NCBI GenBank assembly: GCA_001724265.1
Contig: MEDY01000340.1
Coordinates: 1-32,487, forward strand
From: Rhizaria sp. SCN 62-66
Lineage: Eukaryota
Length of the DNA: 32,487 nt
Direction of reading: 5' to 3'
The notes under the pieces are model-generated. The model saw only the letters and a program-made list of their open reading frames with translations. It made no database searches and was not told where the DNA came from. Shown here in pieces: positions 6,701 to 31,722 of the stretch (position 1 is the first letter of the stretch; each line of letters starts with the position of its first letter). A program made the translations under genes and the position numbers.

Positions 6701-9700
6701 CAGTGCCAGCACCAGTGCACGTGTGAGTCGTGCCAACTCCGCTGTCGCGGTTGGCCGGACCGCACATATGTCCGAGGGGGCTGCCGTGGCCGCCGCAGTC
6801 TCCGCCGCCGCTGCAGCCGCCGTCGTTGCCAACTTGGCCGCCATGCCACCGCCATCGTCGGTATCGGCCCGGTTAAAGAGCTTGCACCCCTCACAGTCTC
6901 AGTCTCAGTCTCGGTCACAGTCTCGGTCTCAGTCCCAGTCTCAGTCCCAGAGCCTCACTTCGCAGCCGCAGGCGCAGTTGCAGCCACATGTAGTCAGCGC
7001 GGCCCCTCGTGCCAGTGCTCGGCCGCCGCTGTCACGCACCAGCAGCGGCCTTCTACCCGGAGCCAACGCCACCGCCACGGCCACAGCATCCGCGACTGCA
7101 AATGTGACCACAAACTGGGGCAGTGCTGAATGTGGCGTCCCGAGCTCTCGCACCTGCGCTGGTGGCAATAGCAGTGGAAATCGCAGTGGAAACCCGACCC
7201 CTGGAGCTGTGCGCAGTGCGTTCACGTCCCCTCGCGGCGGCTCCGTCGTCCGCCCCCCTTCGACTCCCGGCTCCGGGTGCGGTTCGGTCTCCGTCGCTCG
7301 GCTCGACGAGAGCCAACTGCGGGTCGAACTGACGCAGGCCCGTGAAGCAGTGGCGGAATTATCGGCCATCTCGGCCACGCATGCGGCGGAAAGCAGGAGG
7401 CTGGCGGCGCAGCTATTAGAGCTGCAGGGGCAGATGCAGGCGTTGCAGCGGAGTAACCAGCATGAAAACTCTCAAAGTTTTACTCGGAACGGCGCGAGAA
7501 GTGGGGACACAAGCGCCGCCGCCAGTAACATTGGCAGCAGAAGTGGCAGCAGCAATAGTAACAACAGTTACGGCGATGGTAGCGGCAATGGCCAAAGCCA
7601 GATTCAGAGCCAGAGCCAGAGCCAGAGTAGCTGCAATGGAAGCACGGTCGGAACGCCTAAGGCCGGCCCTGCCACCACCCGAATGCCTGCTGCTGCATCG
7701 ATGCCCTACTCCAGCTACAGCCCTCACGCTAATGGTACCACAAACGGTCAGCAGCAGCAACAGGGTGTGAACGACGGACCTATTCGCGTGCCAGCCTTGC
7801 CGCTAGGCTCCTCATTCCCCTACGCCACCAGTGATCTACTCGCCAGTGTGACAACGTCGCACGGTTCGACCCCCGGCACAGGGCCGTGTTTTGGCGCTGA
7901 GGGGCCATTTGTGCAGCCCCCGCAATCACTGCATTTACCCGTCAGTGTCAGCGTCGGTGCGCACTCGCACTCGAAGTCACAATCTGCTCTGATGGCACAG
8001 CCACAGGCTGCTATGATGGCACAGGCACAGGCTGCGGCGCGTGCGCATGCAGACGCCGCTGTTGCGCAGACTCTCGCTGCAGCGACGCAGTTTGCCTCCG
8101 GTAACAACTCGACGGAAAGACAAGTTATTCCTGCTGCTGCTGCTGCTGCTGCTATGAAGAAAAATAGTAACAATGCACAGCGGCTTCCGTCTGTTCAGGA
8201 CGGCTCTCCCGGTGTCGGCCCCACCTTTGCCGCCGTTAGCATCAACAACTCCGACACAGTCACTGTCGTTAACAACAACGCTGCAGCCGCTGCTGTTGTT
8301 GCTGCTGCTTCTGCGGGTGTTACTATGGGGGATGGCGATCGCATCAGTCCACGTGCTATGTTTTCCGCGACACAGCCCACTCAGGCGTCCGCGAGTTTTG
8401 CTGCTGCTGCTACAACGACTGCAGTTGGTGGCGGTGCTGTTACTGCAGTGTTGACGCCGGTTGAGCCCACACGCTCGTGCTCAGTCATGATGCGTTCTCT
8501 CGACATAAACGGCAAGAACAGCATCAACAACAACAGCAATAATCACAGCAACTGCGACACTGATAATGTTCCCAGCTGTAGCCCTCGGCGCCGCACCGTC
8601 GCCGCATCTGCCCTTCTTACTCCCATCAGCAATCGCAACAACAACAACAATAGTAACAACAGCAATATCAGTCCCCAGTTGCTGTCTTCGCCCTTATTCG
8701 CCGCCAGTGGTACGCTGCCCCTCAGCGCCAGCCAAGACGCTGCCCTCGCCTCGGCCTCGCTACGGTCCCTCGCGCCCGGTACACTCGGCGCAGTCGTCTC
8801 CGGCAGTGGCCTGTTTAGCAACAGCGGCATGTTTAGCAACAGCGGCGGCATTAGCGGCGGCGAGGCAAACTTTAACGACAACGCGTCGCCTAATAAGCTT
8901 AGTGCAAGCGCAAACGCATCCCTGCCACGGTCGTTTATTAGCTCCTCCTCTCGCGCGTTTGCCCCCACACGGGCCCCTCACGCCGCCGCGGCTATTGCAC
9001 CTCCTGCCGCTTTGGCAGGGTCGCTCGGCCTCGGCCTGGCCGGCGCGGCCGCGGCGGAGGCGGCGGAGGCCAGTGTGGCGTTCCAAGAGGAAGAGAATGC
9101 GGCTTTTAACGCGCAGTATGGCGCTGAGGCGATGCCTGACACCCGCGGCACCAATCTCCGTGCGGCGCGCCGTTTCCTGTTCAACGCCGCCAATAACGAC
9201 CAAAACAACAGCCAAAATGGTAACCACGACCATAGCCCTCCACCAGTTGTTAACTTGAACGCGAGCTTTGCCGCGGTAGCTGCTGTGCGTAACCGTCGTG
9301 CGAGTGAACCTAGCGATGATGAAACCGACGACACCGACAACTCTGTGCGTTTCCTGCCGACTGTGTTGAAGCCTGTTGCTTTACACTACGGCGACGCTCA
9401 TGCTTCTGCTGCTGCGGCGGCGGCGCCGTCAGTGCCGTCAGTGCACAACACGCCCATGCGCCATCCCGCGGTTTCTCTCACCGGCCGTCTCGGTGGCGTA
9501 AACGCAGTGGCGCACACAGGCAATGTTGGGGGTGACCTAAATAGCAGTGGTGGCAACAACTCCCCACCCTATCCGACCCCCGGCTCTGCAATTGGTGCTA
9601 CTGCTGCTGTTGTTGCATCGTCATCTGCTCGTGGGGTAAAGCGTCGCACGCCGTCTCTGTCCATTCTCCCTGCCGAGCCCTGGAGCAGCAACAGCAACAG

Positions 9701-11999
9701 CGGCGGCGGCAGTGGTGGCAGTTGCGGGGACGGAGATAGTGAAGACGATGTAGCTGCCCAGGAAGCCGCCATGCGTTACGCCTCAGCACTGTACGCTCGC
9801 GCGCAACAGCAACAACAACAGCAGCATCAGTTGCATCGGCCGCTGTTGTCTGTCACCACTGCGGTTGTCCATCACATCGATAATGGTGACGATGACGACA
9901 TGTTTGCCGACACGGGCGCTCTCGACGCCGCGCTCGATGCGGCTGCTGCGATGGCTGCGGCCCACAGCAGTAGCTGGGACGTGTTGGAGCCCCGCACAAA
10001 GCGCGCCCGCAGCCCTCATGTCGGTGACCAGCTCGCTCCCCTCGGTGCCAGCGCTGCGCATCTGCCTAGCGCAGTCCAATTTACTCTGGGTGCCGTGTCT
10101 AGCGCTGTTGCTTTCGGTGCCGTGCCGAGCGATGCTGCTACGGGTGCGGGTGCTGTGCCGAGCACTGTCACCAGCCCCGCGCTGGCGTCTCGACACTTCC
10201 AACCCCTCGCTGCTGCTGCTGCTGCTGATGCTGCTATTGTTGGTGGTCTGTCCACGCCCCCGCGTGTCCCGGCCCCGAGCGCTCTGGGCGCAATGGGCGC
10301 TGTCCCCAGTCCGGGCTCGGCGTTTACACTTGCTCGCCCCGCGCATTCCCCAGCACCGGGGGCTAGCCGAGAGCAGCCGTTTGTGAGTGCTTTTGGCCGG
10401 GCCAACCCTACCGCCGCCGCCGCCGCTGCCGCTGCTTCTGGTGCAGCTGCAAACGGTGTCGCTGCAACGGGTGAGATGAAGGCGCCGCCGTTGCCGCTGA
10501 GTGGTTGGAAGTCAGTTGTGCCCTCTGGCCGCCTGCATCGGAGTGACCGTCGGCGCAGTGACCGTAACCGTGACCGTGAGCATGACCGTGACCGTGAGCG
10601 CGGGGACCGTGAGCGTGGTGGGTGGCTGAGTAGTCTCAGCGACGAAGACTGCACCACATCTACCACCGACGACGACGACAACAACAGCGCTATCGACGTG
10701 AAAGCTGGTGCTGCTGCGGCGGCGTCTATGGACCGTAATCGGACACCGATGGATGCACTGTCACAGGAGATGGCCCGCCGCCGCGCTATCGCCCACGCAG
10801 CCGCTATGGCCGAGCTCCAGCGCACACAACAACGACACCAACAGCACCAACAACAGCAACAGCAGCAGATTACGCTGCTTCAACAACAGGAGTTTACCCA
10901 GCACCAGCAACAACAACAGGATGTCGCTGCGTCGTTGACTGCAGCTCTCACAGTAGCCCGGCCTCGCAGTGCAAATCAGCAGCAGCCTTACTGTGGCACA
11001 AGCCTCCCCTTTGATGCCGTTCGGCCTGGCCCCGAGCCCTCGTTCGCACCCGTGCTGCCAACCTCGGCCGCTCGCCCCGCCACTGCCACTATGGCCCCCT
11101 CGGCCTTCGCCGCCCGCCCCGCTACTGCTGTAGACTTCCTTTCTGCTAACATGACACGCTCTATTGCTGCGCCCCTCTCTGCCTTAGCTGGGAACCGCCC
11201 CTCCACAATGGCTTCCTTTTCGTCGTCAGCTCTGGCCCGCCCCGCAACTGCTGTGTCATTCTCCCCCGCTGAAGCCCGTTCTGACACTATTGACCGCCGC
11301 TTCAACATTAATGCTGCGGCCTTCCCCACTGCTGAAGCCGATTCTGCCACCGTAAACAGCTCTATCACTGCTAATGTTACCGCGTCTGCTGCTGCTACTG
11401 CTACTGCTACTGCTGTTGTTGATGTTGATTTGGGCGTTGCAGAGCAGGCTGTGACGCCGCGACGGACTGTGGCGTCGGCGATGATGCGCCCGCCAGCCAC
11501 CGCACTCTCCGTTGTCTGCTCTGGCGTTTTGCTGCGTGACAATGACACCGTGACATCATGCTCCGACAATAACAACGCGAATAACGACGACGTCGTCGAC
11601 GACGACGATGGCAATAATGGCCATAATAACAATGCTGAACAATGGGGTGACGCCATGATTGCGTCAGTCCGCGACAGTACTGAACTCGCCCAAACGGACT
11701 TCTCCGCCAGCGGTCTCGCCGCCGCTGCTGCTGCGGCTGTTGCATTGACCCCCACTAGCGGCACGCGCAGTGGCTGTGTCAGCCACAATATGGGCGGGTT
11801 CGTCTCGATGGCGAGTCCGCTAGTGCAGAGCGTTGCGTCAACGGCCTCGGCAGCGGCGGCGGCGGCAGTAAGTGAAGCTCGTCTCGGCGCCAACAACAGC
11901 GCGATTGACAATGATAGTGAATCCACCGCTGCTGTTGCGGAGTGTGAGGACGCGGATCTCGTTGCAGGCGTTGTTTATATGACTGATGACGCTGCGTAA
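3771..11999 (+). CDS. Giant intronless Ser/Thr kinase, STE11/MAP3K (MEKK/NPK1)-like, 2742 aa; kinase domain at ~4926-5706 followed by ~2000 aa of low-complexity tail
   Basis: LGQGAFGEV, MALKQ, HRDIKSHNLL, DFG, TPLWAAPE and DIWALGCTVIEMATGRDPW, the last typical of MAP3Ks. First in-frame ATG is 3771 (the ORF-track start at 3696 is TTG; in-frame TAA at 3624). Ends TAA. Confidence 0.9.
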   Translation: MPLPNRGPKATGEDMRRLHQRTITQVYSFMEILHDHTCNRNRSNRPSDDPASDADSLSSHSSFYAGADQASLGPLAARVPRATACYTDAQALVSSIAALGESTEELTRALRMLGLPASLLVAGGEVLPAPGAAPADPAAPRRVVMMATPPDNDYNYDDINNSNHCYNAGCAKTNNPSVNGHHCAPAAGHASLSTLYPAPVPAPAPVPSQSNNSIFSTPKKNKSSLNTRGMVNNSAVSGAVAAGNCGADEVTALPQPELLHVAPSPPAPLVAAAAAAAAAASNGSGHVVGVSAASSPALSASASLPRADWVAEDASWTKPAEEEETAELRRRALAAALNVPVNSLPPAADAEAARAAAAHVCPQSPANVLAARLRSAPQVKPAPLRFKKLSKLGQGAFGEVFKVLMIETGAVMALKQFRRATADERRHAEAVAREVRLMQRLRHPHVVTFFGTFEAKDSLAVLMEYAPGASLHALLRDTGGLSEPLARRATRQVCLALAHCHAHHIVHRDIKSHNLLLDAFGHVKVADFGSARVLDRAHAATAANAADFTPLWAAPEVLERGPQGAAVDIWALGCTVIEMATGRDPWAECRFSTLPQAIAHIAEPGSLPAMPATLSALGRDFVSQCLQRDQTMRPTAAQLLDHPWLADAEAQTTVTAVNTSVSETAAAAAAAATGTTQSTKNASVAVAAPVTANATAATAATAAAAAAVAAAAAVAGQVSEAAIGDLKAASVAAQLHQLQAQVQQNHSRSHSHLHAQRLRSSPQQQQQYHQSESSQQQQSFTSCADTTAGDASVMLAVHDASLSMVRALDGSAADSFALTDTTSTGGFEYSTRTSAGAGIADAADCPQSALVNNSVAMTDTDGNYSDSILNNISAFTPTVAASNSDDSVASFNGAVSNSSSNSVNNKTSPTTTAVAAPATVDVDVATMAMTDTETDKPLLATTTSVLTPTAPVTPAVSPALSAAKPVTNSTGPACGSASASTSARVSRANSAVAVGRTAHMSEGAAVAAAVSAAAAAAVVANLAAMPPPSSVSARLKSLHPSQSQSQSRSQSRSQSQSQSQSLTSQPQAQLQPHVVSAAPRASARPPLSRTSSGLLPGANATATATASATANVTTNWGSAECGVPSSRTCAGGNSSGNRSGNPTPGAVRSAFTSPRGGSVVRPPSTPGSGCGSVSVARLDESQLRVELTQAREAVAELSAISATHAAESRRLAAQLLELQGQMQALQRSNQHENSQSFTRNGARSGDTSAAASNIGSRSGSSNSNNSYGDGSGNGQSQIQSQSQSQSSCNGSTVGTPKAGPATTRMPAAASMPYSSYSPHANGTTNGQQQQQGVNDGPIRVPALPLGSSFPYATSDLLASVTTSHGSTPGTGPCFGAEGPFVQPPQSLHLPVSVSVGAHSHSKSQSALMAQPQAAMMAQAQAAARAHADAAVAQTLAAATQFASGNNSTERQVIPAAAAAAAMKKNSNNAQRLPSVQDGSPGVGPTFAAVSINNSDTVTVVNNNAAAAAVVAAASAGVTMGDGDRISPRAMFSATQPTQASASFAAAATTTAVGGGAVTAVLTPVEPTRSCSVMMRSLDINGKNSINNNSNNHSNCDTDNVPSCSPRRRTVAASALLTPISNRNNNNNSNNSNISPQLLSSPLFAASGTLPLSASQDAALASASLRSLAPGTLGAVVSGSGLFSNSGMFSNSGGISGGEANFNDNASPNKLSASANASLPRSFISSSSRAFAPTRAPHAAAAIAPPAALAGSLGLGLAGAAAAEAAEASVAFQEEENAAFNAQYGAEAMPDTRGTNLRAARRFLFNAANNDQNNSQNGNHDHSPPPVVNLNASFAAVAAVRNRRASEPSDDETDDTDNSVRFLPTVLKPVALHYGDAHASAAAAAAPSVPSVHNTPMRHPAVSLTGRLGGVNAVAHTGNVGGDLNSSGGNNSPPYPTPGSAIGATAAVVASSSARGVKRRTPSLSILPAEPWSSNSNSGGGSGGSCGDGDSEDDVAAQEAAMRYASALYARAQQQQQQQHQLHRPLLSVTTAVVHHIDNGDDDDMFADTGALDAALDAAAAMAAAHSSSWDVLEPRTKRARSPHVGDQLAPLGASAAHLPSAVQFTLGAVSSAVAFGAVPSDAATGAGAVPSTVTSPALASRHFQPLAAAAAADAAIVGGLSTPPRVPAPSALGAMGAVPSPGSAFTLARPAHSPAPGASREQPFVSAFGRANPTAAAAAAAASGAAANGVAATGEMKAPPLPLSGWKSVVPSGRLHRSDRRRSDRNRDREHDRDRERGDRERGGWLSSLSDEDCTTSTTDDDDNNSAIDVKAGAAAAASMDRNRTPMDALSQEMARRRAIAHAAAMAELQRTQQRHQQHQQQQQQQITLLQQQEFTQHQQQQQDVAASLTAALTVARPRSANQQQPYCGTSLPFDAVRPGPEPSFAPVLPTSAARPATATMAPSAFAARPATAVDFLSANMTRSIAAPLSALAGNRPSTMASFSSSALARPATAVSFSPAEARSDTIDRRFNINAAAFPTAEADSATVNSSITANVTASAAATATATAVVDVDLGVAEQAVTPRRTVASAMMRPPATALSVVCSGVLLRDNDTVTSCSDNNNANNDDVVDDDDGNNGHNNNAEQWGDAMIASVRDSTELAQTDFSASGLAAAAAAAVALTPTSGTRSGCVSHNMGGFVSMASPLVQSVASTASAAAAAAVSEARLGANNSAIDNDSESTAAVAECEDADLVAGVVYMTDDAA
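6892..6953 (+). repeat. CAGTCT/CGGTCT hexamer microsatellite encoding an (SQ/SR)n run in the MAP3K
   Basis: tcacagtctcagtctcagtctcggtcacagtctcggtctcagtcccagtctcagtcccagagc, translated SQSQSQSRSQSRSQSQSQSQS. Confidence 0.8.
10545..10617 (+). repeat. GACCGT/GAGCGT hexamer repeat encoding an alternating-charge RD/RE tract in the MAP3K tail
   Basis: Translated DRRRSDRNRDREHDRDRERGDRER. Confidence 0.75.
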
Positions 12000-12570
12000 A
12001 TCTCACTTCACAGCAACTTGCCTTAAAGTCACGGTCTCCACATCTCGAACATTATGAAGAAAGTATCAAAAATATTTCGGAGGTTGCACATATTTAATGT
12101 GTACTTGCAAGTTGTATAGTTTATTATTTGTGTTTCTCACTTTGACGGTTGCTGTACATTGTACTCTTATTAATACAGCGATAGCGTTAAGTTTCGTTTC
12201 ATTCTGCTTCTTATTTGTCAAGTTTACACTCTGTTTGACTTCTCCACATTTTGTTCTTGCTCAGGTTTTCAACACCTCGTGACCTGTTTACAGCATTTTG
12301 CACAACTTTTACGGTTATCTTTTAGTATACATTGTATCTATATTCTTACCGTCTCTCAGTTTGCTCTCAATCCTTTCATTCTAAGTATCTTGTAGCTGTG
12401 ACACTTGACGATCACTATTGACATCGGGCCTGCCACAAATGCACCTGTCTATGTTTCTTTTCTAATATCACTGCCTGCATGTGTTTGCCTTTTTTCTTTT
12501 TCCTTCCACCCAGTTCATATGTTGTTTCTCTGTCTTCTTGGCAGTCACGCTTGTCTTGTGTTGATATGCG

Positions 12571-12682
12571 TATTGCTCTCTGTTTATCTATGCGCATGCT
12601 TAGCTGCTGATGCGTTTTATTTGTGGATTGTACGCTTATTGCTCTCTGTTTATCCCTGCGCACGCTTGGCTGATGCGAATTA
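12571..12682. repeat. Two-copy imperfect direct repeat, 66-bp period, between the convergent 3' ends of the MAP3K and kinesin genes
   Basis: TATTGCTCTCTGTTTATC is identical at 12571-12588 and 12637-12654; each copy is followed by TGCGCAYGCTTRGCTG...ATGCG. Confidence 0.75.
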
Positions 12683-13294
12683 TGACGACGTTCGTGCTTA
12701 GCCGCAGTAGTTACCACTTCATAATAATTACAACAATTGATACGCAACTTGCAAGTAGCGTGTCACTCCAAAGTAAAAAAAAAAACACGTAGTTTCAACT
12801 CCAAAAAAGAAAAAAAAAAAACTCAGATTGAACTATGTATTACTCCGTCAATGATTCACCATCCCGTCAATATCTGTTTTGTAACTAAGTGTAGCAAAAA
12901 TCACACACGGCCACTAAAATTACCAAAACACACAATGTCAGAGTGTGTGTTATACTACGGCCACAATTGAACCTCCAGTCTGTATAAAATACACTCAAAA
13001 CACACAATTAAACTTAGTTTAAATCTAAGCACGCTCTGAAACGCTTCGACGACGTTCGCAAATCAACGTGAAATCACTGTTTACTCAAGCAACGCGCTCA
13101 AGTCTCGCTGTAAGCATTTTCCTATTAAAGCAGTGCATTAACGTCTCTTTGACTGTGAAACTCGTGCGTTCAAGTGTCACTCTGGGCAACGCGCTGCTAA
13201 ATCAGAGTTTTCACGTTTCGCCGTGTGAATTTGACTTTGAGAGCTGTGCATTCACGTCTCACTGTTTGTGCAAGCAGTGCATTCAGCTGTAAAT

Positions 13295-16645: not shown

Positions 16646-18061
16646 ATGTCCATCTACCGTCCTCCGACGATTTCCCGTCGCGCTCAGACCGGACCCGTGA
16701 CTGTGGCCTCCCAACCGGCCACCATGTCACCCCCTGCGTCCTTCTCGATCTACCTCGCAGCGCGGCCATACTCGCCGCCCTCAGCCCGCGTCAAGACTCT
16801 CGCCGAGTCCCCCGCCAAGTCGGTCGAGCACGAGGCTGCGCGAATCCGCTTGTTGGACCATTCACGCCTTATCCGCGCCCATAACGCCTCCGATAACAAC
16901 AACAACGACAGTACTGACTACACCTCTACCAACGCTGCTGCGTTTCAACAGCAACAGCAACAGCACAGTGGTTCATTCTCATCATTCCCCGGCAGCAACT
17001 CCCTCACTCTCTCGCAGCAGCTGCAGCAGCACTCTAGTTACTCCGACACAACAACAACAACAACAACAGCAGGAGCAATGGTCGATTCATCATCATCGTC
17101 ATCATCATCGCTGCAGCAACAACAGCATCACTATAGCGCGTCTTTCGCCCCTAACCCCGACCCCACCGCCTCGGGCGGCCGCGGCGCCGACAAGTGGTCC
17201 AAATCCTGGACCAGCGACGTCGTCGCCCTCAACGTCGGTCTCCGCCGCCCCGCCGTCCTGCCAGTCCCCCCCCGCACACAGGAGGTCCTCGCAGTTGAAA
17301 CCGAGCGCCGTCTGGCCGAGGCGGACCGGCAAGTGCTGCTAAACCGCGTCCGCGCGCTGCAGGGGCAGGAGCGGCGGGCGGCGACCAAGATCCACGCCGC
17401 CGCCGAGAAGCTTGACCGCGTGCGGACGGTCCGCGCACAGCAGAGGGTCCGCAAGGGGGCTCGTGACGAGCTGATCGCCGAGCTCGCGGCCCAGAGGTAC
17501 GACGAAGCCCAGGCGAAGCGTGACGACGCGCGGCGGGCGCGGGCCGCGGTGGAGGAGTATAAGGCGGCAGTGGCGGCACAGAGGCAGCATCAGCGGGCTC
17601 AACTGCAGGCTGAACGGCGGGAAGGGGAGATGTTGCAGCGGCAGGTGCGGGACGCGGACGAGGCAGCGCGCAGGGCCGCGGCGTCGGTGGTCCGCGCGCA
17701 GGGGCGGCTGCACCAGCAGCGGAGGGAGGCGGCAGCGGCGCTGAGGCAGGCGGCGGCCGAGGGGGAGCGCGCGCGGCGTCTGCAACATGCTGCGGAGGCG
17801 AGGGATGCGGCGTTGAGGGACATGGACGCACTGCAGAGGGCGGAACAGGAGATGTTGGCGAGGCTGCAGGCCAGGGGGGCGCAGCATAGCGCGGTGTTTG
17901 AGCAGTTGGCGGGGGAGCTAGAGCCCTCTGCGGCGGCCGCTCAGTCACACTCTCAGTCCCACTCATCATCCTCACAGGCATACTCGCCCTCGCAGTCAAA
18001 TGCGCAGTCAAATGCGCTGGGACAGGGACAGGGACAGGGCTACCATGGGAGGGTGCGTTGA
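16646..18061 (+). CDS. Uncharacterised coiled-coil protein, 471 aa, with Q/S/T low-complexity N-terminus
   Basis: First ATG at 16646 (in-frame TGA at 16610). Long R/E/Q/A helical region (RRLAEADRQVLLNRVRALQGQERRAATKI ... MDALQRAEQEMLARLQ), strong codon bias, ends TGA. Confidence 0.82.
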   Translation: MSIYRPPTISRRAQTGPVTVASQPATMSPPASFSIYLAARPYSPPSARVKTLAESPAKSVEHEAARIRLLDHSRLIRAHNASDNNNNDSTDYTSTNAAAFQQQQQQHSGSFSSFPGSNSLTLSQQLQQHSSYSDTTTTTTTAGAMVDSSSSSSSSLQQQQHHYSASFAPNPDPTASGGRGADKWSKSWTSDVVALNVGLRRPAVLPVPPRTQEVLAVETERRLAEADRQVLLNRVRALQGQERRAATKIHAAAEKLDRVRTVRAQQRVRKGARDELIAELAAQRYDEAQAKRDDARRARAAVEEYKAAVAAQRQHQRAQLQAERREGEMLQRQVRDADEAARRAAASVVRAQGRLHQQRREAAAALRQAAAEGERARRLQHAAEARDAALRDMDALQRAEQEMLARLQARGAQHSAVFEQLAGELEPSAAAAQSHSQSHSSSSQAYSPSQSNAQSNALGQGQGQGYHGRVR

Positions 18062-21000
18062 AGAAAGAGGAGAGAGGTGATCTGAAAAGTCGATTTGAGG
18101 CAGATGCCTCCGTGTTATTTGGAGCGTCCATCTCTCAATGGCCAGCGATGATGCTGTGAATGATTGATTCGATTCGAGTGAGGTGAGCATTGATTCCGTT
18201 CAACATAGAGATGTATCTTGCATATGTACCAACGCAACCATACGCATGTGGAGCCTATACGACTTTAAATTGTCCGAATCCATCTGCCCTGGCGTCACAC
18301 GAAAGTCCTTGGTCAGGCATGTTCGTCGCTATCAGTGAGGATGTGCCTTATATACAGCATGTCGGACGAGCTCACGATGTCTGTCCGCGTTTCTGTATTG
18401 TTTTAGCATTTCTATTCTTTCTTTCCCTGATTTAACATCTCCAACACGAATCTATATCGTGTCAAATGCAATTTCTGATCCTCGTATTGACGTTATTTCA
18501 TTTAAAGTCGTGCTTAATCACCTTATCATGGAAGGTTAATACAGTTTAAGCAAGTTTATGAGTTATATCAGAATGTTTTTGATCATATATTGCGTAATCA
18601 TTTGTGTATGACCTCATACTGACTGTAATATTTGCATTTTTCTACAAGTTAAAAAGCCTCGCCGGAAAAAATCTCAGCTATTTATAAGCTATAAAATTAA
18701 AATCTTGAACTTAATCGTCTTGGTAAGATTTATCAAAGAATTCCTTTATCTCATTTTCTGACAGTCACCATACACAGTTGTTGTTTTTTATTCTGTGATA
18801 TCTGTCATCAAACACACATCCCGACTTATCGTGGCATGTCCGACGATAAACGGGGGAAACACACCTCTACAGTCAGAGGGGCACTGAAGAGCAGCTTGGG
18901 ACCTGCTACATCATTTGATGCTTTGAGGACAAAAACCGAGTTCGAGGACGAACGTTTTAAGATTAAACACTATGTGATATATCGAATTAAGCAATATCTA
19001 CGTCTGTAGCGTGTCTAAACTAGTTCTGTCTATCGCAAAAACAACATGCAATGTTGCAGGCGCGTTTTCATTCATGGGATGCCAAAAAGCAATAACGTAC
19101 ACGCGTTAACATTGTTTTCATTTGTCTGTCTGTGTTTTACAAAATCTTATGCTTGGAATGAGACAATAAGACCTTGGTCGACACGAGTTCGTTTTAATAT
19201 CTTAATTGATTACAAAAGTAGTGTGTATTCTGACTGACTAAGCGCGGACAGCAAAGTCGACAATCGAGCTAAGCACAGCAGCATGTGATACAGAAGAGTG
19301 AGCGCAGCTTAGTTGGCAACCAACCATTTCCCCCTAACTTAAACCCTAAACCCAGCCAGTCAGTCAGTCAAAGAACCAGTCATGTGGTGTCCAAGGTCAC
19401 AAATCAAGTCAAGTCAAGTTATTGAATCGAGCTGAGTGTAATCCACAGAGAGTGTCCTGAAGTGCTGCCGAAACTAGAGCACTGTGGTATCATCAAACTG
19501 GGATTACGTCCATCAGATCAATCCAATAGTGTCAGAGACAGTGAGTGTGTGAATGTGTTGGTTGAGACTAAAACAAAGCAAGATATACAGAAACAGGAAC
19601 GGATACAGAAACGGATACAGAGCGGGCGGGGGCAGTGATCGCACTGAGCGTTGCAGAGCCCCCTGCGGCACGCAAAAGACTCACGGGATAAAACTAGGCA
19701 GACAAACAAAATATAAAAGAACTCTAAGTGAAAAAAATGAACAATGATATGAAAACACGAGAGATAAAAAGAACCAGAACAAAAGCAGGAAGGGGAAGAA
19801 AGAAAGAAAAACAAAAACATACACACGAGACAAGTTGGGAGGGGTTCCTGTTACGAACGAAATAAAACACGGCATGGCACGAAGCATGAAAACATCGATG
19901 CAAGTGTGTTGTTGACAGAATTGATAAAACGAAGGAAAACTAAACCAGCAAAGGAAACAGAGTTTTTTTAAACATAAAAAGGAACACAGGTGATGTAAAA
20001 ACCAGGAGTTTGAGTGTGTGTGTGTGTGAGTGATTGTGTGTGAACAACATTGTGTGTGAGGGGCGGGCGAGCAACAAACAGGACATCAGACTGACGGAAG
20101 CAGCTGAATTGCGAGTTGAATCAAAGGGGGAGTTGGTTGCATGTGCGTGTGGATGTGGATGCGGTGGCATTGTAGGGGATTGTTATTGTTGTTAAGCAAG
20201 ACGGGAGAAGTTACGATTAAAAGCCATGATTAAAACAACAAACGACGGTAGTGTGTGATTAAAGCGTGACATGTGAGTCTGTGAATTGGTGTCAGGAGCG
20301 TGGAGGGATGTCTGTGCATTGACACGACACAGAAAGTGTGAAATGTACGAAGAGTGTGATGTCGTGTTTACGCATGCAGCAGATGTGCACAGTGTGAATG
20401 AGAGAGAGAGTGTGTGTGTGTTACATTAGCGGACACTGCACAATGGCATAGCATACAAAACACTTCAAGAAACAACTGTGTGCGGGGCATACATACACGG
20501 GAAAAACACACGGACATATCACGCAATATAACACTTGTTGTTGTGGGAGAATAATGATGGGAGAGAAATGAAACGTTTAGGATCAAAGAGATTCGTAATA
20601 ATGAGGCAATAATCTGACAAAACTGAACACTGTGTGGTCAATTTGCGAGGGCCAATTACACTCACCCACCCCGTTTGTTACAAAACAAACCGAAGCGGGG
20701 GAAGGGAATGGAGGCAAATGACTGGTGACGTCGTCTGAAGCAGTGACAACTGCACAAGAAGTGCGGGTGTTGTTGCCAGAGCCAGAACCACCGAAACAGT
20801 GAGTGGCAAAGACGGACAATGACGCGATCGATGAAGACGCGGAGTGGTGAGAGAAACAGAGACAGCCGACAGACAGGGGAATGCAAAGGGGGATTCTCGA
20901 TGAGACCACAAAGAAAAAAGAAAAAAGTCGTCAAAAGGGGGATGTTGACGTTGCGACACGTTTAGAGACTCAAAACAATAGAAACAGGAGCAGCGAACAA

Positions 21001-21109
21001 ACATAAACGAAAAATCACAAGAGACACTGTCATGAAACAGCATTTCAAAGAAAAAGATAAAGAGGTAACAAAATAGCAGAAACGAGAAGAAGAAAAAAAC
21101 ACTGTTGAT

Positions 21110-22178
21110 TTACTCACTGCCGCCGAAAGCAGGTTGTGCCGGGACAGGGGTAACTCCAGCGTTTGAGCTGGCATTGCTGTCTCCCCGCCTCAGACCCCTG
21201 CGCTGGGGTGTCGGGGACAGCCGGTCAGCGCCAGACCCGCCGCCGCCGCCCACGGTCACACTCTGACTCTGGGGCTGACCGGTGGTGGGGGCGAGAGATA
21301 GACCCTGGATCTGCCGGCCCAGTGAGAACGAGAACCTCGGAGTGTCCTCCGTGCCATTGTTGTTGCTGCTATAAACACCATTACCACTGCCAACACCCTA
21401 GCCATTGATATTATTTGCATTTGCATTTGCGTTGTTGTTGTTATTAGGGTTTGAGTTGTTACTGTGCGAGTTTGAGCTTGCCCGGGGTGTCATCGTCAGC
21501 GGCGGCAGCATCGCAGGCGAGTTGCTGTGTTGCTGCAGCTGTACCTGCGCTGCCGAGGGAGCGGATGGATGCATTTCGACCAAGGACACGCCTGCGAGAC
21601 CGGCCAGCGGGAGCTTCGACCCCTTGGGCGACGGGGGGACTGACAGAGCAGTGCCACTGGCACTATTGTTACCAACAGTGGCGGCAGCGGCGGCAGAGGA
21701 AGTGAGGGGGATTTGCCCGTTCGTGGTCATACTGCGGCGAAACTGCGGAGTCGAGCTTCCTTGTTGCTGCTGTTGAGGCTGTGGCTGCGGTCCGGGGCCA
21801 CTGGTCGCGGTAAGGGAGACTGTGAGCCCTGATCCAGGGATGCCACCAACTGAGGGGTTGCTGTTGTTGGAGGCTCCGTGCGAGGGTGATTTGTGGCCAG
21901 AACCTGTGGGACGGGTGCGGGACGCGAGCGTGCTGTCCACGGTCAAGGCTGAGCTTGATCCGGCACGGTGTAGTGGAGCCTGTTGGCCTAGCTGCAACTG
22001 CTGCTGCTGTTGTTGTTGTTGTTGTTGCTGTTGTTGATAGTCGCCGCCGGCGGTCGGGCCGAGTGAGAAACCCGACGGCTGCTGCTGTTGCTGCATCTGC
22101 TGCATTTGTTGCTGCTGCATGTACTGTTGCTGCTGAGCGTGCGACGGTGACGCCGATGCTCCTAGCCCAGGGCTAAAA

Positions 22179-22216
<38 letters not shown>

Positions 22217-25200
22217 CTGCATCGCGAGTGAGACTGAGAGCCGCCCCTGGGACGACTGGCGCTGATGGTGCCCCTGCCCCTGCCCTTGGTACTGCTGCTG
22301 CTGTTGTTGATACTGCTGCTGCTGATGCTGCTGGAACTGGTTACTCGAGGACATGGCCGCTGCCGAGAGGATCGCGTCCCGGCCCCGGCGCGGGGACGGC
22401 GCTGACGGAACCATACTTCCCCCACCACCGTTAGTAGCATTAACACTCACATTATAGCCGGTATTGGGGTTGCCATTGAGGTTGTTGTTTGTGCTCACGT
22501 TCATGTTTGGACTGCTGCCCGAGGGGCCCAGCGGCGGAGACGGCATATGCGGCGACGGCGACGGGGACCTCTGCATCGTATTCACACCACCCACATTGCC
22601 ACTTCCAGTCAAACCACCGCCGACCAGAGGGGCGTTGTTGGCGCCAGTGCGGACCGACCGGGAGGAGTTGCTGATGACCGAGGGGGCACGTCCCTGTCCC
22701 TGCGCGGGCACGTACAGACGCATCCCATCGCGCGTGAGGCCAGACATCGCGTCCCCGGCCAGTGAGCCGCCGCCGTGCTGAGACCCTGCGGCGGAGCTGG
22801 TCGGCGAGTGCATGACCGAGGGAGCGGGGGAGTAGACCGACGCCGCCGGTGATCCGACAGGGGAGTAGTCGTACGCCGACGCGAGAGCTGAGCAGCGGAG
22901 CATGTTGGCACGCGTGGAGCCCAAGGCCTTGAACAACACGTGTTCTTGGGACACCTGCGCGCCTTCCAGCGACGGCTCGCGGGCGCGGCGGGAGGTTTCG
23001 AGACCGGCATCGTAGGCCGCCGCCGAGAGAGGCATCTGCTGCTGCTGGCCTTGCCCATACTGTTGTTGCTGCTGCTGACCGTAATACTGCCCACCACCGT
23101 AGTTCGTAGCGCCGGTTGCAGTGTCGACGTCTCCCAGCGCAGCGTAGTCAAACTCGTAGAAAAGCGGCTGCAGCTTGGGCGGCATCAACGGCGCCGGGGC
23201 ATCGTCATCCTCGCCACCCCCACCCTGCTGTTGCTGCTGCTGGGCCTGGGCCTGAGCTTGTTGGGCGGCGGCGATGGCGGCGGGGGAGCCTGGGGGGTGG
23301 GCGTTGATCGCGGCCTGCGCCTGCGCCTGCTGCTGCTGCTGCTGCTGGGAGGGGGGTGCGACGTACCTGTAGTTCTTGAACCCCTTCTGCGACGTGGGGA
23401 GGTTGGGGAAACACTTGTTCATGTACGCCGCGCGCTCGGCTTGCGGAATGGGCGGGAAAGGGGCCGGGCCACGGCGGTGTTCAATGGCCTCCCAGTCCAA
23501 CGACGCGAACCAGGGGTGGGATTTGACGGCGTTCCAGTGGAAATTGGTGTCGCTGTCGATCTCGTCCAGAGTGCGGGCAGCCCAGCCGTCCTTTTGCTTC
23601 AGACCGGGGGGACCGGAGGTGGCCGTGGGGGCCGGTGACGGGGACGGCTGAGCGCCGGGCCCCGGGGACGCCGCTGGAGAGCGCAGAGAGCCGCCGCCCC
23701 CCGCCCCGTTGTTAGGGACGCCAGGAACGGCGAAACGCGGGGAATCGACCGACATCACACCGTTATTGCCGTTGTTGCCGCCGAGGCCGGTTTGAGAGCC
23801 AGCGATGGAGTAGGCGTTGTTGGATGCGTTGCTGTTTGAGCGCGGACCAAGCTGCCTCACCTGGCCCTGCTGCTGCTGCTGCGACTGTGAGAGGCTCAGA
23901 GGAATCGACGCCTGGGGCAAGTGTAAGTGCCGCGTGCGGGGGCCGGGCGGGGTGTAGGTGATCACACCGTCCCCGTCCAAGTTCGCCGGCCAGTCTGTGT
24001 GACGGAAAAACTGGTGTGAGTAAGGGAAGTCGCTCAATAGTGTCGAGGCAGGGACACACGCGCCGGGCACCGGGAGCAGTTTACCCGCCTCGTCAGTATC
24101 GCCCGGCTGCGGCAGGTCGTGGAAGGGTAAGTGCCAGCCCTAAGTAGCCGCCTGGAGGAGTTGGCTGCGGTGGGCATCGAGGAGAGTGAACTGGCCGGGG
24201 TAGTGGGCTGCGGTGCCGAAGACGCCGCGGCTCGGGCTCGGGGTGCTCGGGACGACTTCCACGGTGATGGGCCCAGCTGCAGTGGTCGTAGTAACCAGTG
24301 TATGTGCCAACACGACCCCGGCGGCGGCGGCGGCGAGCGCGGCTGCCTGATCCAGATCCTCCAGTGAGTCCACCTCCGGCACAGTGAGCGAGCGCCCCTT
24401 CCGGACAAGCTCGGCACAGGCCTCACATCGGCATCCGGCGCAAGCGGGGCAGCCGCAGGGCACGGCGACCGGGATGGCGCGCGGGGCCAGGACCGCATGA
24501 GGCCCAGCGGCGGTGGCCACGGCGGCGAGGTTGTCGTTCATCGGGGCGGTACACGCAACCTGGTAGACGGGGACAGCGGAGAAACCCTCGAGGTTCAGAG
24601 CGCGGGCGGCGCGTTGAACGGCTTGCTGCGCTGAGGAGGCCGGCCCGGCGACGGCAGCAGGGATGGAGCGGTCGCTGCCGGCGCCGGCGCCGAGCGCGGC
24701 GGGGAAAGTGGGGGAGACCTGCTGCAGAGGAACATCGGTCGCCGGGTGGATGTGGTATATCTGGGCCATGCCGGGCACGTTCCCGTACCCGCGCACGTGG
24801 CCGTGGCCGATCCAGTGGCCCTCATCGGCGACAGCGACGGGGACCTTGACCGCGGTGAAGGTGTGGGGGAGAGCGCGGTCTAAGTGCGGGGGCAGGCCGA
24901 CGGAGAAGGCGGGCGGCCCCTGATAGTACTGCTGCTGCTGCTGCTGTTGCTGCATATGCTGCTGGTATTGGCCGTTGTTGATGTTGTTGTTGTGACAAGG
25001 GCAGGCGCATGAGCCCATCAAGTCAGGCCCGGGGCTGCGGGCGCCATCATCATCGCACGACCACAACATACGCTGCTGCTGCTGCTGCTGCTGACCGTTG
25101 GCTGTGACGCCGCTGCCGCCACGGCGAGGAGACGGCTGGGCCGCGATGTTGCTGTTGTTGTGGCCGCCGTGGAGACTCTGGGCGTGACCGGTGTTGCTGC

Positions 25201-26999
25201 CGGTGAAGTTGCCGTTGTTGCCGTTGGCGCCGAGGCCGAGAGCTGGGTCCTCCTCCTGAGTGGTGTGCGCGAGCCCGGGGGTCATCGAGGCACGCAGGGG
25301 AGGCCCGCCCGTGACAGAGCCAGACCCAGTGACGCCGAGACCGCTGAGGCCGCCGCCAGGAGTGTAGGGCGTGGCGAAACCACTGTTGGCGTAGCCGCCG
25401 CCGCTGTTGTTATGCCCCCCAGTGCAGCCACAGCTGCGGCACACGCCACCGGCTGTGGTAACCCCCAGATCAACCATGCCGGAAAACCCGCTGTTGGTGA
25501 GAGGTGGGTACACGCGGGGCGGGGCTGGGGCAGTGAAGTCGTTGTGGGGCAGACCGAGACGAACGCAGCGTTCAACCATGCGCATGCAGCTGAGTTCGCA
25601 GCCCAACCGGTCACAGGGGTTGGGTAAGGTGAGCCGCCGGATGAGGTCTTTGAATTCGCGGCTGAGGCGTGCGTTGGTTTTGAGGTCGTTGGGCGTGTTG
25701 GGGACGCCGGGGTGCAGGGACTGGGCCTTGCGGCGGCCGGTCACCATCTCGTACAGGGTTATTCCAAGGGAGTAAAAGTCGCAGGAGAAATCGTAGGCGT
25801 GGCCCGCGGCGGCTTCAGGAGACCGGTAGCCGCGGGTGCCGCCGCGGCCGACGATCGAGTAATGGTGGTCCTCCTCCAGCGGGCGGCAGAGGCCGTAATC
25901 GGTGACGGCGATGTGCCCGTCAGCGTCGATGAGCAGGTTGAGCGGCTTGATATCACGGTAAACGTAGAAGAGAGAGTGGATATGCTCCATCGCGAGGATG
26001 ATCTCGGCCGCACACAGCCGCACGATGTCCTCGGAGAGCCGTTGGGACGCCATGAGAGCCGAGTGGACATCGCCGCCGGTGTAGCAGGGCATGACGAGGA
26101 TGAGCTCTTCGCGTGTCTGGAAGGCGTGGAGGAGACGGACGACGTAGGGGGAGTGGGAGGCAACCATGACGGCACGTTCCATCCACAGCATCTATTGCAA
26201 CACAGCAGCAAAAGCAAGAGCAACAGCGCAAAAAGCAAAGCGAAAGAGAGAGAGGGGAGCAGAGGAGAAAGTTGAAGAAAGGTGAGGTTGGCAGAGGCGG
26301 ACATTCGGGATACAGCCAGAAAGGGTTTTTTGGGGAGAGGAAGAGAGTATAAGAGATAGAAATAAGTTGTTTTGTTTGCAAGCAAAGGTGACGTACGAGA
26401 GCGGAGGTTTTATCGGCCTCACAGATCGAGCGCTCGGCGAGTTGGGCATCGGTTAACCCTTCAGGTCCCTGTTGTGCCCGGTCAAGACCGAGCAAGCGTG
26501 CCTTGTTGATGCGCTTGACGGCAACGAGAGAGGAGAAATCGGGAACGCCCTTAGACTTTTCGCTAAGGCGGAGAGCGGCCTGGACGCGACCAAAGCCGCC
26601 GCGGCCGAGGGTCTGGGACGGGGGAAAAAGGGGAAAGGAAGCGGGAATGGAGCGGTGACAAGGGAAAGCATGTGCGGTAAGAATGGGACATAGAAAATGA
26701 CGAAAAGAGTCATGAAAAACAAAAGAGGAGAAAATCTGGCCGGGCTAATAAGGTATATGCGTAGTCTAAGTATCTGGTTATGGCATATTCGTCGAATAAG
26801 GAAGGGATCAAAGGCAAGAAAAGCCTTGTTTAGGTGGTGTGGAGGTGCTATGAACCACTAGTTAGTTTAGCTTCGATCACAGCACTCACAAACATCGAAA
26901 GGGACGGGAGTAAACCGGCAGTAAAGAAAAGTAACGTACCTTTCCGAGAAGGAAAGAGTCCAGGGAGATCTCCTGTGGTTGTGAAGCGCACAACCCCAT
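21110..26999 (-). CDS. AGC-group Ser/Thr kinase with N-myristoylation motif, ~1785 codons including two in-frame TAGs; exons 26999-26940, 26612-26397, 26191-21110
   Basis: Exon 1 MGLCASQPQEISLDSFLLGK; exon 2 TLGRGGFGRV...VAVKRI; exon 3 YRDIKPLN, DYG, GTRGYRSPE, DFYSLG, DRLGC. After the first TAG come WNAVKSHPWFASLDWEAIEHRRGPAPFPP and the hydrophobic motif FYEFDY. ORF-track pieces 24140-26191 and 21398-24070 are in the same frame, separated by one TAG. The frame continues 95 codons past the second TAG to TAA at 21112-21110. Confidence 0.88.
21980..22335 (-). repeat. Clustered CAG/CAA trinucleotide runs encoding polyglutamine tracts in the AGC kinase tail
   Basis: Several (ctg/ttg)n runs on the + strand, in frame as Q tracts on the - strand. 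Confidence 0.85.
26192..26396 (-). other. Intron 2 of the AGC kinase (205 nt, phase 0)
   Basis: CTC|GTACGT donor, pyrimidine-rich body, GCAATAG| acceptor. Joins the 72-codon exon 2 to MLWMERAVM (helix C region). Confidence 0.88.
26613..26939 (-). other. Intron 1 of the AGC kinase (327 nt, phase 0)
   Basis: AAG|GTACGT donor and long pyrimidine tract ending GTCCCAG|. Splicing gives FLLGK-TLGRGGFG, the expected lead-in to the glycine-rich loop. Confidence 0.88.
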
Positions 27000-28466: not shown

Positions 28467-29291
28467 TTACTCGCGGGACTGCTCACCAGCGGCAGCGGGC
28501 TTAGCGACATCAGTGGCATGGCCGGCAGCAACGAGGTTGGAGCGGACCTTGCGGATCTGGCGCTTCAGCTCCTGGGCATCCTCAAGGAAGGGGATGTAGA
28601 GCCAGACGCGGTTGAGGCACGGCATGGGCTTGCCGACGAGGAGCTGGGGGCAGGGGCAGCCAGTGGGGATGGAGGGGGGGCCCTGGCCGAGGGGCATGCA
28701 GGGGTTGCCCCAGATCTTGCCGCCGGCAGTGAAGCAGCAGGTGCCCTCACCGTGCATGAAGACGACCTCGCCGCACGAGTCGAAGCCGGTGGGGCAGCAG
28801 GAGCAGTGAGTGAGGAAAGGACGGCAGCAGTCGGGGACGGTAGAGAGCTGAGCAACGTCACGGTCGAGGTACAGAACCTGGGGGTTGTCGACGATTTGGT
28901 AGCAGACCGAGGAAGCGTAGTTGTACTCAATGCGGTCCTCGTAGAGGTGGACGTAGGAGGCCTTCTTGAGCTCAGAGGTGTGGCAGAGCGCGAAGGAGCA
29001 GGGGAACGCCTGGGTGGCGAGGAAGTGGAACAGCACGATGCGGTCAGAGATGGGAGCAGAGTAGATCAGGGTGGTGTTGCCGCCGTTAATGTTGATCTTC
29101 TCGGCAGCGAGCATGCCGGGGTAGCCGCACATGGGCTCCTTGGGGCCGGCGGGCTCGGCAGCAGCGGCGGGCTCAGCGGCAGCGGGCTCGGAGGCAGCGG
29201 GGGCCACGGCAGCGGCAGCGGGGGCAGCAGCAGGGGTGGCCTCGGCGGGGGTGGCCTCGGGAACGTCGGTGGTGTTAGGCTCAGCAGACAT
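28467..29291 (-). CDS. Cys-rich protein of unknown function, paralogue A, 274 aa, with Ala/Pro/Glu-rich N-terminus
   Basis: Strong C/G-ending codon bias, ATG...TAA, and colinear motifs shared with the 30964-31722 gene. Confidence 0.88.
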   Translation of the reverse strand: MSAEPNTTDVPEATPAEATPAAAPAAAAVAPAASEPAAAEPAAAAEPAGPKEPMCGYPGMLAAEKININGGNTTLIYSAPISDRIVLFHFLATQAFPCSFALCHTSELKKASYVHLYEDRIEYNYASSVCYQIVDNPQVLYLDRDVAQLSTVPDCCRPFLTHCSCCPTGFDSCGEVVFMHGEGTCCFTAGGKIWGNPCMPLGQGPPSIPTGCPCPQLLVGKPMPCLNRVWLYIPFLEDAQELKRQIRKVRSNLVAAGHATDVAKPAAAGEQSRE

Positions 29292-30963
29292 CGGTGACTA
29301 GATACGACGCAAACAATGTGGCGAGCACGGGGTGGTGTGAGAAGCGAGCAGATTCAAACGAGCGCAAGTGGCGCATACGAATGGTGAGGAAAAGATCGGG
29401 CGGAGTGGGCAGCAGAAAGAGTGAGATTTAGGACGAAAGATAGCTACATAGCTGGTGAAAAACCCGGAAATTGTGTTTTCCTAGCAAAGAGAAGTTTCAA
29501 TAAATCGCAAAACAAATCATAGAGCCGGGAGGTAGAGTGGAACATGGTGCGGATTCTTCGGGCAGCATGCCTCACGCGAACAAGTTTTGGCCCGCGTATT
29601 TCCATGTTCACTACAGCCTGCTGCATCATTGCTCGATCAAGAAAAAGAAACTAGAACGGTTGACAAGTTAAGAACTACGCCACATTTCGACTGACATTCG
29701 AACTGAACACAGAGGACGGCAGAAAGTCATGATTTCTTCTCGGTTTCGGGGCCCAACTCTTCGGTCGCCTGCCCATCCAGGCGTCGGTTTGGCGGCTTAA
29801 CTTCGATGTACTCGGTTCCGAAAAAATAACCATTTAAACGGCAAAAAATCACCCAACTCACCTAAGTGTAATTCGATGTTAATTTAAACAAATGTTGTGT
29901 TTTCTGTAAACCTATATGTTAATGCGACGTTTTTGAATTAAAGTGCTACAAATATTTTCGGAGCACTACTGAACAAGGCATCTAGTGCGAATTAAACGGA
30001 TATTGCGTGATAACAACGTATCGCAATGTATTCCTGACAGTTTTCACCAGCTGCCGCGTCCGAACGCACAGTAGGCGCACGCCAAAAGAAAAGTCGAGCA
30101 TGCATACATGATACCAGAGCAACCTGCGATTGCCAGTCCTCTTCCTAGTAACCACATAAGACTGTACGTAAAAGAGAAAAGACTGGAGAGTAAGCACTCG
30201 TATTGGGGTTTTGATATTTGCTGAATTTACAACACAGAGAACATATATGCATGAAACAAATTGGTGACGGAGGGGTGGCTTCACTGCCTCCTGCACAAAA
30301 ACTCAACACAACACTCGCACACAGTCAACCAAACAAACACAGTAAAAACACAGCGCAAGCCCACAGAGAGCATGGCTATGACTGAGAAACGGTGACTTTT
30401 GGGGGTGTGAAACACGGAAGAAGAGACGAGAGAGTGGAAAAGAGCAAGCGCACGGAAAACCAGCAGGGATAACACTTTGAAGACAGTTTCTTTTTTAAAG
30501 AGAGAGAAAAGAGCTGATGAAACGAGATTGACGGTAACGACGGTGGTGGTGCATGAGTTATCAATCACACGGAATGAGTGACTGAGAAGCTGGTCATGAG
30601 TGCTGGTATACAATGGGAAAGAGGGCAAAGGAGAGCGCACACGCAACAACACAAGTCTGTCGCGAGTCACGCAATAGATGTGATGTTTTGCACACTTGGT
30701 GTTTTTTTTACTTACATTACACATTCATACAGATATACTTGAGACACACTGTGCGTAGAGACGGGGGAGGGTGGTTTTATGATGGCAACACAAAGCGATA
30801 AAGCGATAAAGCAAACAAATAGCCTGATGGTCGATCTATCGTTTTGTGTTACGTCTCTGTGAGATTTGCAGTCACACAGAGACGCAAGCTGTCACACAAC
30901 GAGCGCATAAGTTTCGAGAGAGTGTTAAGTGTTATGAAACACGGACACACCAACGCAAGTTAC

Positions 30964-31722
30964 TTACGCGTCACGGGACTGCTCGCCCTCAGCGGGGGCC
31001 GCGGCGACACCGACAACCTTGCCCGCGACAACCTTGTGCGCCTCGACAATGGCAGCACGTTGGTCAGTGAGCTTCTGGATGAAGGTGTCAAGGCCGTCCT
31101 TATCGACGAAGGGGAAGCACACCCACTGCTCGTTGCCGATGGGGCAGAAGCCGAAGAGGCAAGGGCCACCGAGGCAGGCGCCAGTGCCGGCGGGGACGAG
31201 AGGGGAGGCGAAGCGGCGGCCACCGGCGCAGCAGACACCGTTGGTGGCGCCATGGCCGATGGCGGTAGTGCCGCACATGCCGCAGCCGTCGGGGCAGAGC
31301 ATGCAGTGGGTGAAGACGGGGAGGCAGGGGCCGGCCTGCTCGAACTTGGCAGCCCAGTCACGGTCGAAGTAGGAGACGGTGGTCATGTCCATAACCCAGC
31401 AGAGGCACGACATGGGGATGTTGGACTCGACGTGGTCGTCGTAGATACGGTGGAAGGTGTACTTGGCCAGCGCGTCGTGGTTGCAGATCATGCACGACAT
31501 GGGGGAGCAGATCGACATGGTGAGGTGGAAACACCGGAGGCCGTCCTTGGAAATGGGGGCATCGTAGACGAGGGTGGACGACTTGCCGGCAGCGTAAGTG
31601 GCAGCGATGGTGGACGACTTGGTGTCCATGATTCCGTAACGGAACTCCTTGCGGATGTAAGTCGGGTCATCGGTGGGGTCGTAGGCGGGGTCCTTCATGC
31701 GCTCGAGCTCGGCGTTGTCCAT
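30964..31722 (-). CDS. Cys-rich protein of unknown function, paralogue B, 252 aa
   Basis: Codon bias starts at ATG 31722 (MDNAELERMK); the ORF-track extension to 32049 is a pyrimidine-rich non-coding leader. Shares TLxYxAPIS, YxDxxExN, YxDRD, THCxxCPxGxxxCG and GEQSR with paralogue A. Ends TAA. Confidence 0.88.
   Translation of the reverse strand: MDNAELERMKDPAYDPTDDPTYIRKEFRYGIMDTKSSTIAATYAAGKSSTLVYDAPISKDGLRCFHLTMSICSPMSCMICNHDALAKYTFHRIYDDHVESNIPMSCLCWVMDMTTVSYFDRDWAAKFEQAGPCLPVFTHCMLCPDGCGMCGTTAIGHGATNGVCCAGGRRFASPLVPAGTGACLGGPCLFGFCPIGNEQWVCFPFVDKDGLDTFIQKLTDQRAAIVEAHKVVAGKVVGVAAAPAEGEQSRDA

Follow-up and report, generated by a model that had tools for sequence, protein, structure and literature searches.

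UAG may be a rare sense codon, at least in part, in the protist that carries the 32,487-nucleotide (nt) contig MEDY01000340.1 (Rhizaria sp. SCN 62-66, assembly GCA_001724265.1; positions 1 to 32,487 of the forward strand, hereafter the window), with UAA and UGA kept as stops; we give this reading an even chance. It concerns a minus-strand gene for an AGC-family protein kinase whose open frame contains two TAG codons, TAG1 and TAG2. Both occur in DNA as well as in spliced RNA, and past them the frame remains coding and conserved. The best argument for sense UAG, a point absent from the first-pass annotation of this DNA, is that TAG1 precedes an undecayed AGC C-terminal block that lies in one frame with the kinase core in two orthologues. 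That annotation had proposed that the genome decodes UAG as an amino acid; the TAGs are real, they are in RNA and a conserved block lies beyond TAG1, but one gene cannot establish a new genetic code, nor by itself carry the claim to the genome. The weights given below to the competing explanations are matters of judgement, not computation.

The complete kinase gene has 1785 codons in three exons (Table 1), with the TAGs at codons 776 and 1690, 914 codons apart. Retranslation of exon 3 agrees with the first-pass description of a 1694-codon frame whose only stops are TAG at 24142-24140, TAG at 21400-21398 and the final TAA; no frameshift, TAA or TGA was found in the gene's 1785 codons before that TAA. 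TAG1, between QLLQAAT and GWHLPF, lies in a low-complexity insert of ~650 residues that separates the kinase core from the AGC C-terminal block. TAG2, between NNING and GVGSGNG, lies in the low-complexity tail, 95 codons upstream of the TAA. Exons 1 and 2 align with the N-terminal part of orthologue P0141 (43% identity, 86 columns, E = 8e-16).

Table 1. Features of the AGC kinase gene in the window.
Feature	Position	Strand	Evidence or remark
Exon 1, 20 codons (MGLCAS...)	26940..26999	-	Exons 1-2 match N-terminus of orthologue P0141; donor GTACGT
Exon 2, glycine loop GRGGFG and VAVK lysine	26397..26612	-	X5 depth tracks each bin's exon share
Exon 3, 1694 codons, ends TAA	21110..26191	-	X5 contig alignment stops exactly at 26191, 93 letters left over
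Kinase core within exon 3	25595..26185	-	Pfam Pkinase match, model positions 46-255 of 263; RSK and PKA nearest among solved relatives; 66-68% identity to P0139, P0141
In-frame TAG1, codon 776, context ACT TAG GGC	24140..24142	-	Unchanged in X3 and X5 contigs
Conserved block beyond TAG1 (DGW..R.L..ID.D.NF.WNA...HPWF...W)	23456..23590	-	Last kinase-domain helix and start of AGC tail; orthologue comparison
LQPLFYEFDY, counterpart of QQxLFVDFEF in both orthologues	23144..23173	-	Local comparison
In-frame TAG2, codon 1690, context GGC TAG GGT	21398..21400	-	Same letters in X3, in X5 and in the poly(A) run X7
Terminal TAA	21110..21112	-	UTR-like (untranslated region) composition immediately after; X5 contigs extend past 20600

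Parts of the window occur in thirteen public run rows from seven metagenome studies of bioreactors, wastewater, sludge and biofilm. Six of the rows hold at least half of its words, runs X1 to X4 having 85-100% of them, and four runs, X3 (DNA), X5, X7 (poly(A)) and X8, were compared in detail. In X3, an independent DNA run that comes from a different study to the possible source of the window, contigs 23610-25375 and 20922-21854 span TAG1 and TAG2 and match the window without a difference (1766 and 933 nt). Contigs of X5 bridge TAG1 (contig 24091-24455, 49 and 313 letters either side) and TAG2 (470 and 244 letters), again with 0 differences and no gap. The X7 contig across TAG2 shows no change; none of the X7 pieces listed covers TAG1, and the X8 pieces listed reach neither TAG. 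Another X7 contig lies within intron 2 (26305-26569), so that unspliced molecules are present and X7 is the weaker RNA evidence. X5 carries the tool label 'RNA? probably DNA', but over the window it looks like spliced RNA, and we took it as such because a contig alignment ends at the exon-3 acceptor (the kinase junction row itself not being among the joints listed), because depth over five bins (3.83, 1.62, 0.97, 0.88 and 0) tracks the exon share expected of spliced RNA (3.48, 2.02, 1.03, 0.85 and 0), and because the neighbouring gene forms one 1.8-kb contig of depth 61 adjoining a bin of depth 0. Over the same five bins the DNA run X3 has depths of 4.4, 6.4, 6.4, 2.2 and 4.3.

Since both TAGs recur in X3 DNA and stand unspliced and unedited in X5, they are neither assembly errors nor intron ends. 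The first-pass annotation had left room for either: the independent DNA assembly holds both TAGs, with X3 and X5 identical to the window at each, and the RNA-derived contigs retain both unspliced. A heterozygous null allele was considered and set aside, no alternative letter being listed at TAG1 or TAG2 in X3 or X5, in contigs that drop rare variants. That either TAG serves as a 3′ splice site, or sits inside a cryptic intron missing from mature mRNA, is very improbable. Both sites do read TAG followed by G, as an acceptor would, and contigs drop rare isoforms; yet RNA contigs cross both TAGs without a gap, all three introns of the window start with GTACGT, and no exact in-phase donor was found within 1.5 kb upstream of either TAG. 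The sole 5-of-6 donor match (25564) would excise 1425 nt that X5 covers, and TAG2 has no pyrimidine tract (0.40). On the contiguity of X5 and this donor scan we reject intron ends as the main form.

By comparison with orthologues, what follows TAG1 is a conserved part of the kinase. Ahead of the insert the Pfam kinase match runs as far as model position 255 of 263, and the match of the core to RSK2 (E = 9e-33) ends at RSK2 residue 272; RSK2 278-306 aligns with the AVKSHPWFASLDW block, 690 codons later and past TAG1 (2.6 bits, weak alone). A query around TAG1 matched three proteins among 1.84 billion, the window's own shortened call and two orthologues; the orthologues match only the block downstream of TAG1, at the 90% level only the window's own protein was matched, and this protein search found no relative aligning across TAG1. 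In both P0139 (590 residues) and P0141 (904 residues; a longer member of the second orthologue cluster), the core, a shorter insert, the C-terminal block and an FxxFxF motif lie in one open frame. Local comparison of the post-TAG1 block gave 29/45 and 23/45 identities between the window and the orthologues and 24/45 between the orthologues themselves, and over a 140-residue stretch of the core the three pairwise comparisons gave 105, 102 and 99. The block is as conserved as between the two orthologues, which argues that there has been no decay after TAG1. Catalytic motifs are intact, and neither frameshifts nor decayed conserved motifs were found in the 1785 codons.

As in the AGC kinases RSK/S6K and PKA, the core, with its match to RSK2, is followed by an HPWF..DW block and an FxxFxF tail; LQPLFYEFDY resembles the AGC hydrophobic motif. 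This architecture (core, C-terminal block, hydrophobic-motif-like tail) is complete only with TAG1 read through. Unlike those kinases, the window protein has a lineage-specific insert between core and last helix, ~650 residues here and about 130-210 in the orthologues, and DYG in place of DFG (25595-26191, minus strand), together with a short activation segment, GRGGTRGYR, common to both orthologues; by these motifs the kinase would belong to a lineage-specific AGC subfamily. A second H-x-F-F..DW-like stretch, YSHQFFRHTDW, in the insert beyond TAG1 (24012-23980, minus strand) resembles a partial duplicate of the C-terminal block. An AlphaFold model of P0139 had a pLDDT (predicted local distance difference test) score of 37.6 and was not used. 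Standard-code gene calling was expected at first pass to break such genes, and three entries in public protein sets (P0134, P0137 and P0138) indeed end at QAAT, that is, at TAG1.

Codon statistics agree with coding past both TAGs. All seven gene models were rebuilt and, as first annotated, five end in TAA (Rad51, a MAPKKK-like kinase, the AGC kinase and two Cys-rich paralogues), two in TGA (kinesin and a coiled-coil gene) and none in TAG; the MAPKKK label is our interpretation of a Pfam Pkinase match. Trained on the six other genes, with non-coding DNA of the window as background, a codon model scored the annotated kinase frame at +0.67 bits/codon before TAG1, +0.57 between the TAGs and +0.62 after TAG2, and at -0.53 after the TAA, with non-annotated frames at or below 0.2. 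The 95 codons beyond each of the seven real stops scored -50 to -110 bits, with the borders of two small exons approximate in this comparison, against +35 beyond TAG1 and about +60 beyond TAG2. Likewise, GC content over 90 nt drops after all seven real stops and after neither TAG (0.69 to 0.69 at TAG1; 0.42 to 0.54 at TAG2). UAA and UGA thus terminate in 7/7 genes, with a composition shift after every one. The six other genes have no internal stops (0 TAG in their 4999 codons), and no further coding was found in the remaining DNA of the window, where the best of 1228 windows of 95 codons scored -19 bits.

If UAG is sense, ribosomes would read the spliced kinase mRNA past both UAGs and make a protein of 1785 residues, the block past TAG1 completing the kinase core. 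A tRNA with a CUA anticodon would outcompete an eRF1 of lowered UAG affinity; L69A and T32G are precedents for weakened UAG recognition by eRF1 (PMC5304391), and a tRNA-CUA should not read UAA (PMC11687900). With UAG the rarest codon of the window and confined to unconserved inserts, such a reassignment would be of recent date or low efficiency; AGA and ATA, with 3 uses each, are nearly as rare. We doubt, though we put it forward, a more particular version in which a UAG code has been caught early, with UAG no longer ending genes and rarely decoded, perhaps only before GG, and surviving in few unconstrained inserts.

The first-pass annotation had held that the residue at UAG is not assignable from the window, and it is right in this, both sites lying in inserts to which no orthologue aligns. 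Our best guess is leucine, with somewhat better than an even chance; glutamine is distinctly less probable, and serine, tyrosine or another residue a little less so again. Leucine is favoured over glutamine because the TAGs have no glutamine neighbours, an outcome with an expectation of 0.87 for leucine and 0.13 for glutamine in the kinase gene, where most glutamines lie in runs, and because 297 CAG codons, each one transition from TAG, would probably have fed many more TAGs. Serine fits the TAG flanks as well as leucine does.

Possible, if unlikely in our judgement, is that the code is standard and that two nonsense point mutations, fixed in a near-clonal lineage, broke the gene a short time ago. 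TAG2 would then trim a dispensable tail and TAG1 remove the last kinase helix and the AGC tail, so recently that neither frameshifts nor decay nor loss of transcription had followed. Of the nonsense changes open to the kinase's codons TAG is the most probable (56-68% of them; p 0.31-0.47 for two TAGs), both TAGs lie in one gene (p 0.26 if randomly scattered) with none in the six others, and the compared runs are letter-identical at the kinase. About 30 point changes, with a nonsense share of 3.2-3.5%, would give the second stop and barely touch the 45-residue block. The window, moreover, came from a very large scan, in which broken genes presumably outnumber new codes. Against a break, two nonsense changes are needed, yet there is no frameshift in 5.3 kb; a random-decay model in which both are TAG and both fall away from glutamine runs has p about 0.1 (0.10-0.13). 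Catalytic motifs are intact, with 66-68% identity kept in two relatives, and loss of transcription or splicing is not seen: X5 covers the kinase as spliced RNA, with depth 3′ of TAG1 equal or higher, contig depth being a poor measure. The first-pass suggestion that orthologues might expose a decaying pseudogene is answered in part, the post-TAG1 block being undecayed but a recently broken gene predicting much the same picture.

Several points weigh against UAG as a sense codon. Only one of the seven genes in this single window has it, at two of 6784 codons, and it would make up 0.4% of leucine or 0.5% of glutamine codons, a use 15- to 70-fold below that of published UAG-only codes; it is absent even from the 2742-residue low-complexity kinase of the window. 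Neither TAG falls in a conserved column. The absence of TAG from all seven gene ends is within chance (p = 0.48, 0.21 and 0.08 for a TAG usage of 10, 20 and 30%), and the fornicate Euthynema, with a standard code, ends 7/170 genes in UAG (PMC9161772); the missing TAG ends therefore carry little weight. No tRNA genes were found in the window (0). Signs of decay would be missing from a very recent pseudogene too. Because every kinase piece listed in the four runs is letter-identical to the window, as in a clone-like lineage, the runs count as one evolutionary observation, and as contigs drop rare forms, minority alleles, editing or splicing would go unseen in them.

Rather improbable, in our estimate, is that UAG is still a stop, which a near-cognate or weak suppressor tRNA reads through when GG follows, giving a short inactive form and a lower level of full-length active kinase. 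Both TAGs precede GG (p about 0.015 given that glycine makes up 12% of the unconserved region, a post hoc figure), and readthrough would account for both the rarity of UAG and its confinement to a regulatory gene. However, there are just two sites, a full-length product would require readthrough at both, with the first in mid-gene, and no stable RNA structure was found around or after either site (z -0.13 to +1.55 in 6/6 folds, pseudoknots being outside the model). Nor does any RNA structure support stage-specific A-to-I editing of the mRNA from UAG to UGG (tryptophan), as in fungal restorative editing of Fusarium PUK1, which we hold to be clearly improbable. Both sites match the fungal preference for U at -1 and A/G at +1 and +3 (PMC11156358), and PUK1 is likewise a kinase gene with two genomic UAGs, both edited, in fitting flanking bases; editing limited to one life stage would escape these libraries. 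Unlike in PUK1, RNA contigs here keep UAG, and the TAG codons are 914 codons apart, not in tandem. No editing shows in the X5 contigs at either site or in the X7 contig at TAG2, minority or stage-specific editing being invisible in contigs. Tryptophan, furthermore, makes up only 8/1476 residues of the unconserved region, and the precedent is fungal, with nothing to put the host among fungi.

Few lineages are known to give UAG a meaning apart from UAA in their nuclear code: one uncultured rhizarian, Iotanema, several ciliates and a green alga (PMC11687900). In the rhizarian exLh (Sainouroidea), where UAG is leucine, 384 UAGs were counted in 71 conserved genes, which end in UAA (56) or UGA (15) (Panek et al. 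2017, PMC5304391); both exLh and the window have in-frame UAG in expressed genes and only UAA or UGA ends (5 and 2 of 7 here). The exLh UAGs, however, stand at conserved leucine columns, as against two in seven genes here, none at a conserved column, and exLh is insect-associated, unlike the wastewater and bioreactor organism of the window; the two systems are likened by UAG use alone, not kinship. Iotanema spirale reads UAG as glutamine, in about 8% of glutamine codons (PMC5304391; PMC9161772). It would share with the window a sense UAG, a stop UAA and UAG as a minor codon, and differs in that share (0.5% here), in having eRF1 T32G and in that the TAGs here lie outside glutamine runs. In phyllopharyngean ciliates UAG became leucine or glutamine with several independent origins (McGowan et al. 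2024, PMC11687900): it makes up 6.5-10% of leucine codons and occurs in 81-91% of genes in the former, and makes up 18.5-31.8% of glutamine codons in the latter. Like the one proposed here, these are UAG-only reassignments, with tRNA-CUA as the mechanism. They differ in their AT-rich genomes, in a tRNA-CUA found in two of the genomes and in the 78-91% of genes that carry UAG across UAG-only ciliate codes (PMC11687900).

By the content of the window the host is a GC-rich, intron-poor eukaryote, to which the Rosculus vilicus genome, at 37.7% GC (PMC10770858), is a poor match. A Rad51 tree of 119 rows, which left out P0004, P0005 and P0111, placed the window's Rad51 in a long-branched clade with three other rows (SH-aLRT, Shimodaira-Hasegawa-like approximate likelihood ratio test, 100) and no named sister. 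The closest homologues of Rad51 (P0002) and of the Cys-rich genes (P0121) apparently share a 24,561-nt contig, which suggests that the Rad51/Cys-rich gene order is conserved in a relative. A metagenome scan for a relative returned seven loci, none with the kinase and one (L007) a piece of the same organism; scans of bacterial genomes and viral contigs for stray host contigs gave nothing useful, L008 being a 32% match in a bacterial record. The coiled-coil gene (16646-18061, plus strand) belongs to an unnamed family, and its nearest Atlas clusters occur most often in ciliates and oomycetes, which hints weakly at SAR (stramenopiles, alveolates and rhizarians).

Among the other genes, the single-exon kinase at 3771-11999 (plus strand) encodes 2742 residues, with a 260-residue domain and a low-complexity tail of ~2100 residues, and no TAG. 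The introns lie at 1539-1737, 26192-26396 and 26613-26939 (minus strand), and a probable fourth lies directly upstream of the kinesin frame. The tandem Cys-rich paralogues (28467-29291 and 30964-31722, minus strand) are 34% identical over 216 columns, have no Pfam match and have 12 homologues, one from a Yihiella transcriptome set. In X5 the first of them is a single 1.8-kb RNA contig including a 960-nt 3′ UTR. At 28467-29141, X7 holds at least two diverged Cys-rich copies (about 89-90% identical, changes mostly synonymous), from related species or paralogues, which could serve for comparing codons; no TAG is created by the 40 of their 59 variants that were listed. Intergenic DNA at 12565-12675, 12738-12765 and 30849-30887 holds one short direct repeat and two imperfect palindromes. 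The window gave no Rfam match and no dispersed repeat usable as a probe.

UAG-only codes are already known, and this one is at best a new member, unusual in its sparse use of the codon; if the kinase gene is merely broken, the finding is an ordinary one. Our literature search, from which subscription papers fell outside the scope and which is therefore no proof of being unpublished, turned up no report of a UAG-only code in a wastewater protist. Because the organism occurs in runs of seven studies, its genome, tRNA set and eRF1 should be obtainable from public metagenomes and metatranscriptomes. If UAG is sense here, a further non-ciliate case would mean an additional independent origin, and, with UAG used so little, no better candidate for reassignment at an early stage would be known, which has a bearing on the question of ambiguous intermediate versus codon capture. 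Should the code indeed have been caught early, a widespread non-ciliate wastewater protist would offer a living 'ambiguous intermediate' of UAG-only reassignment.

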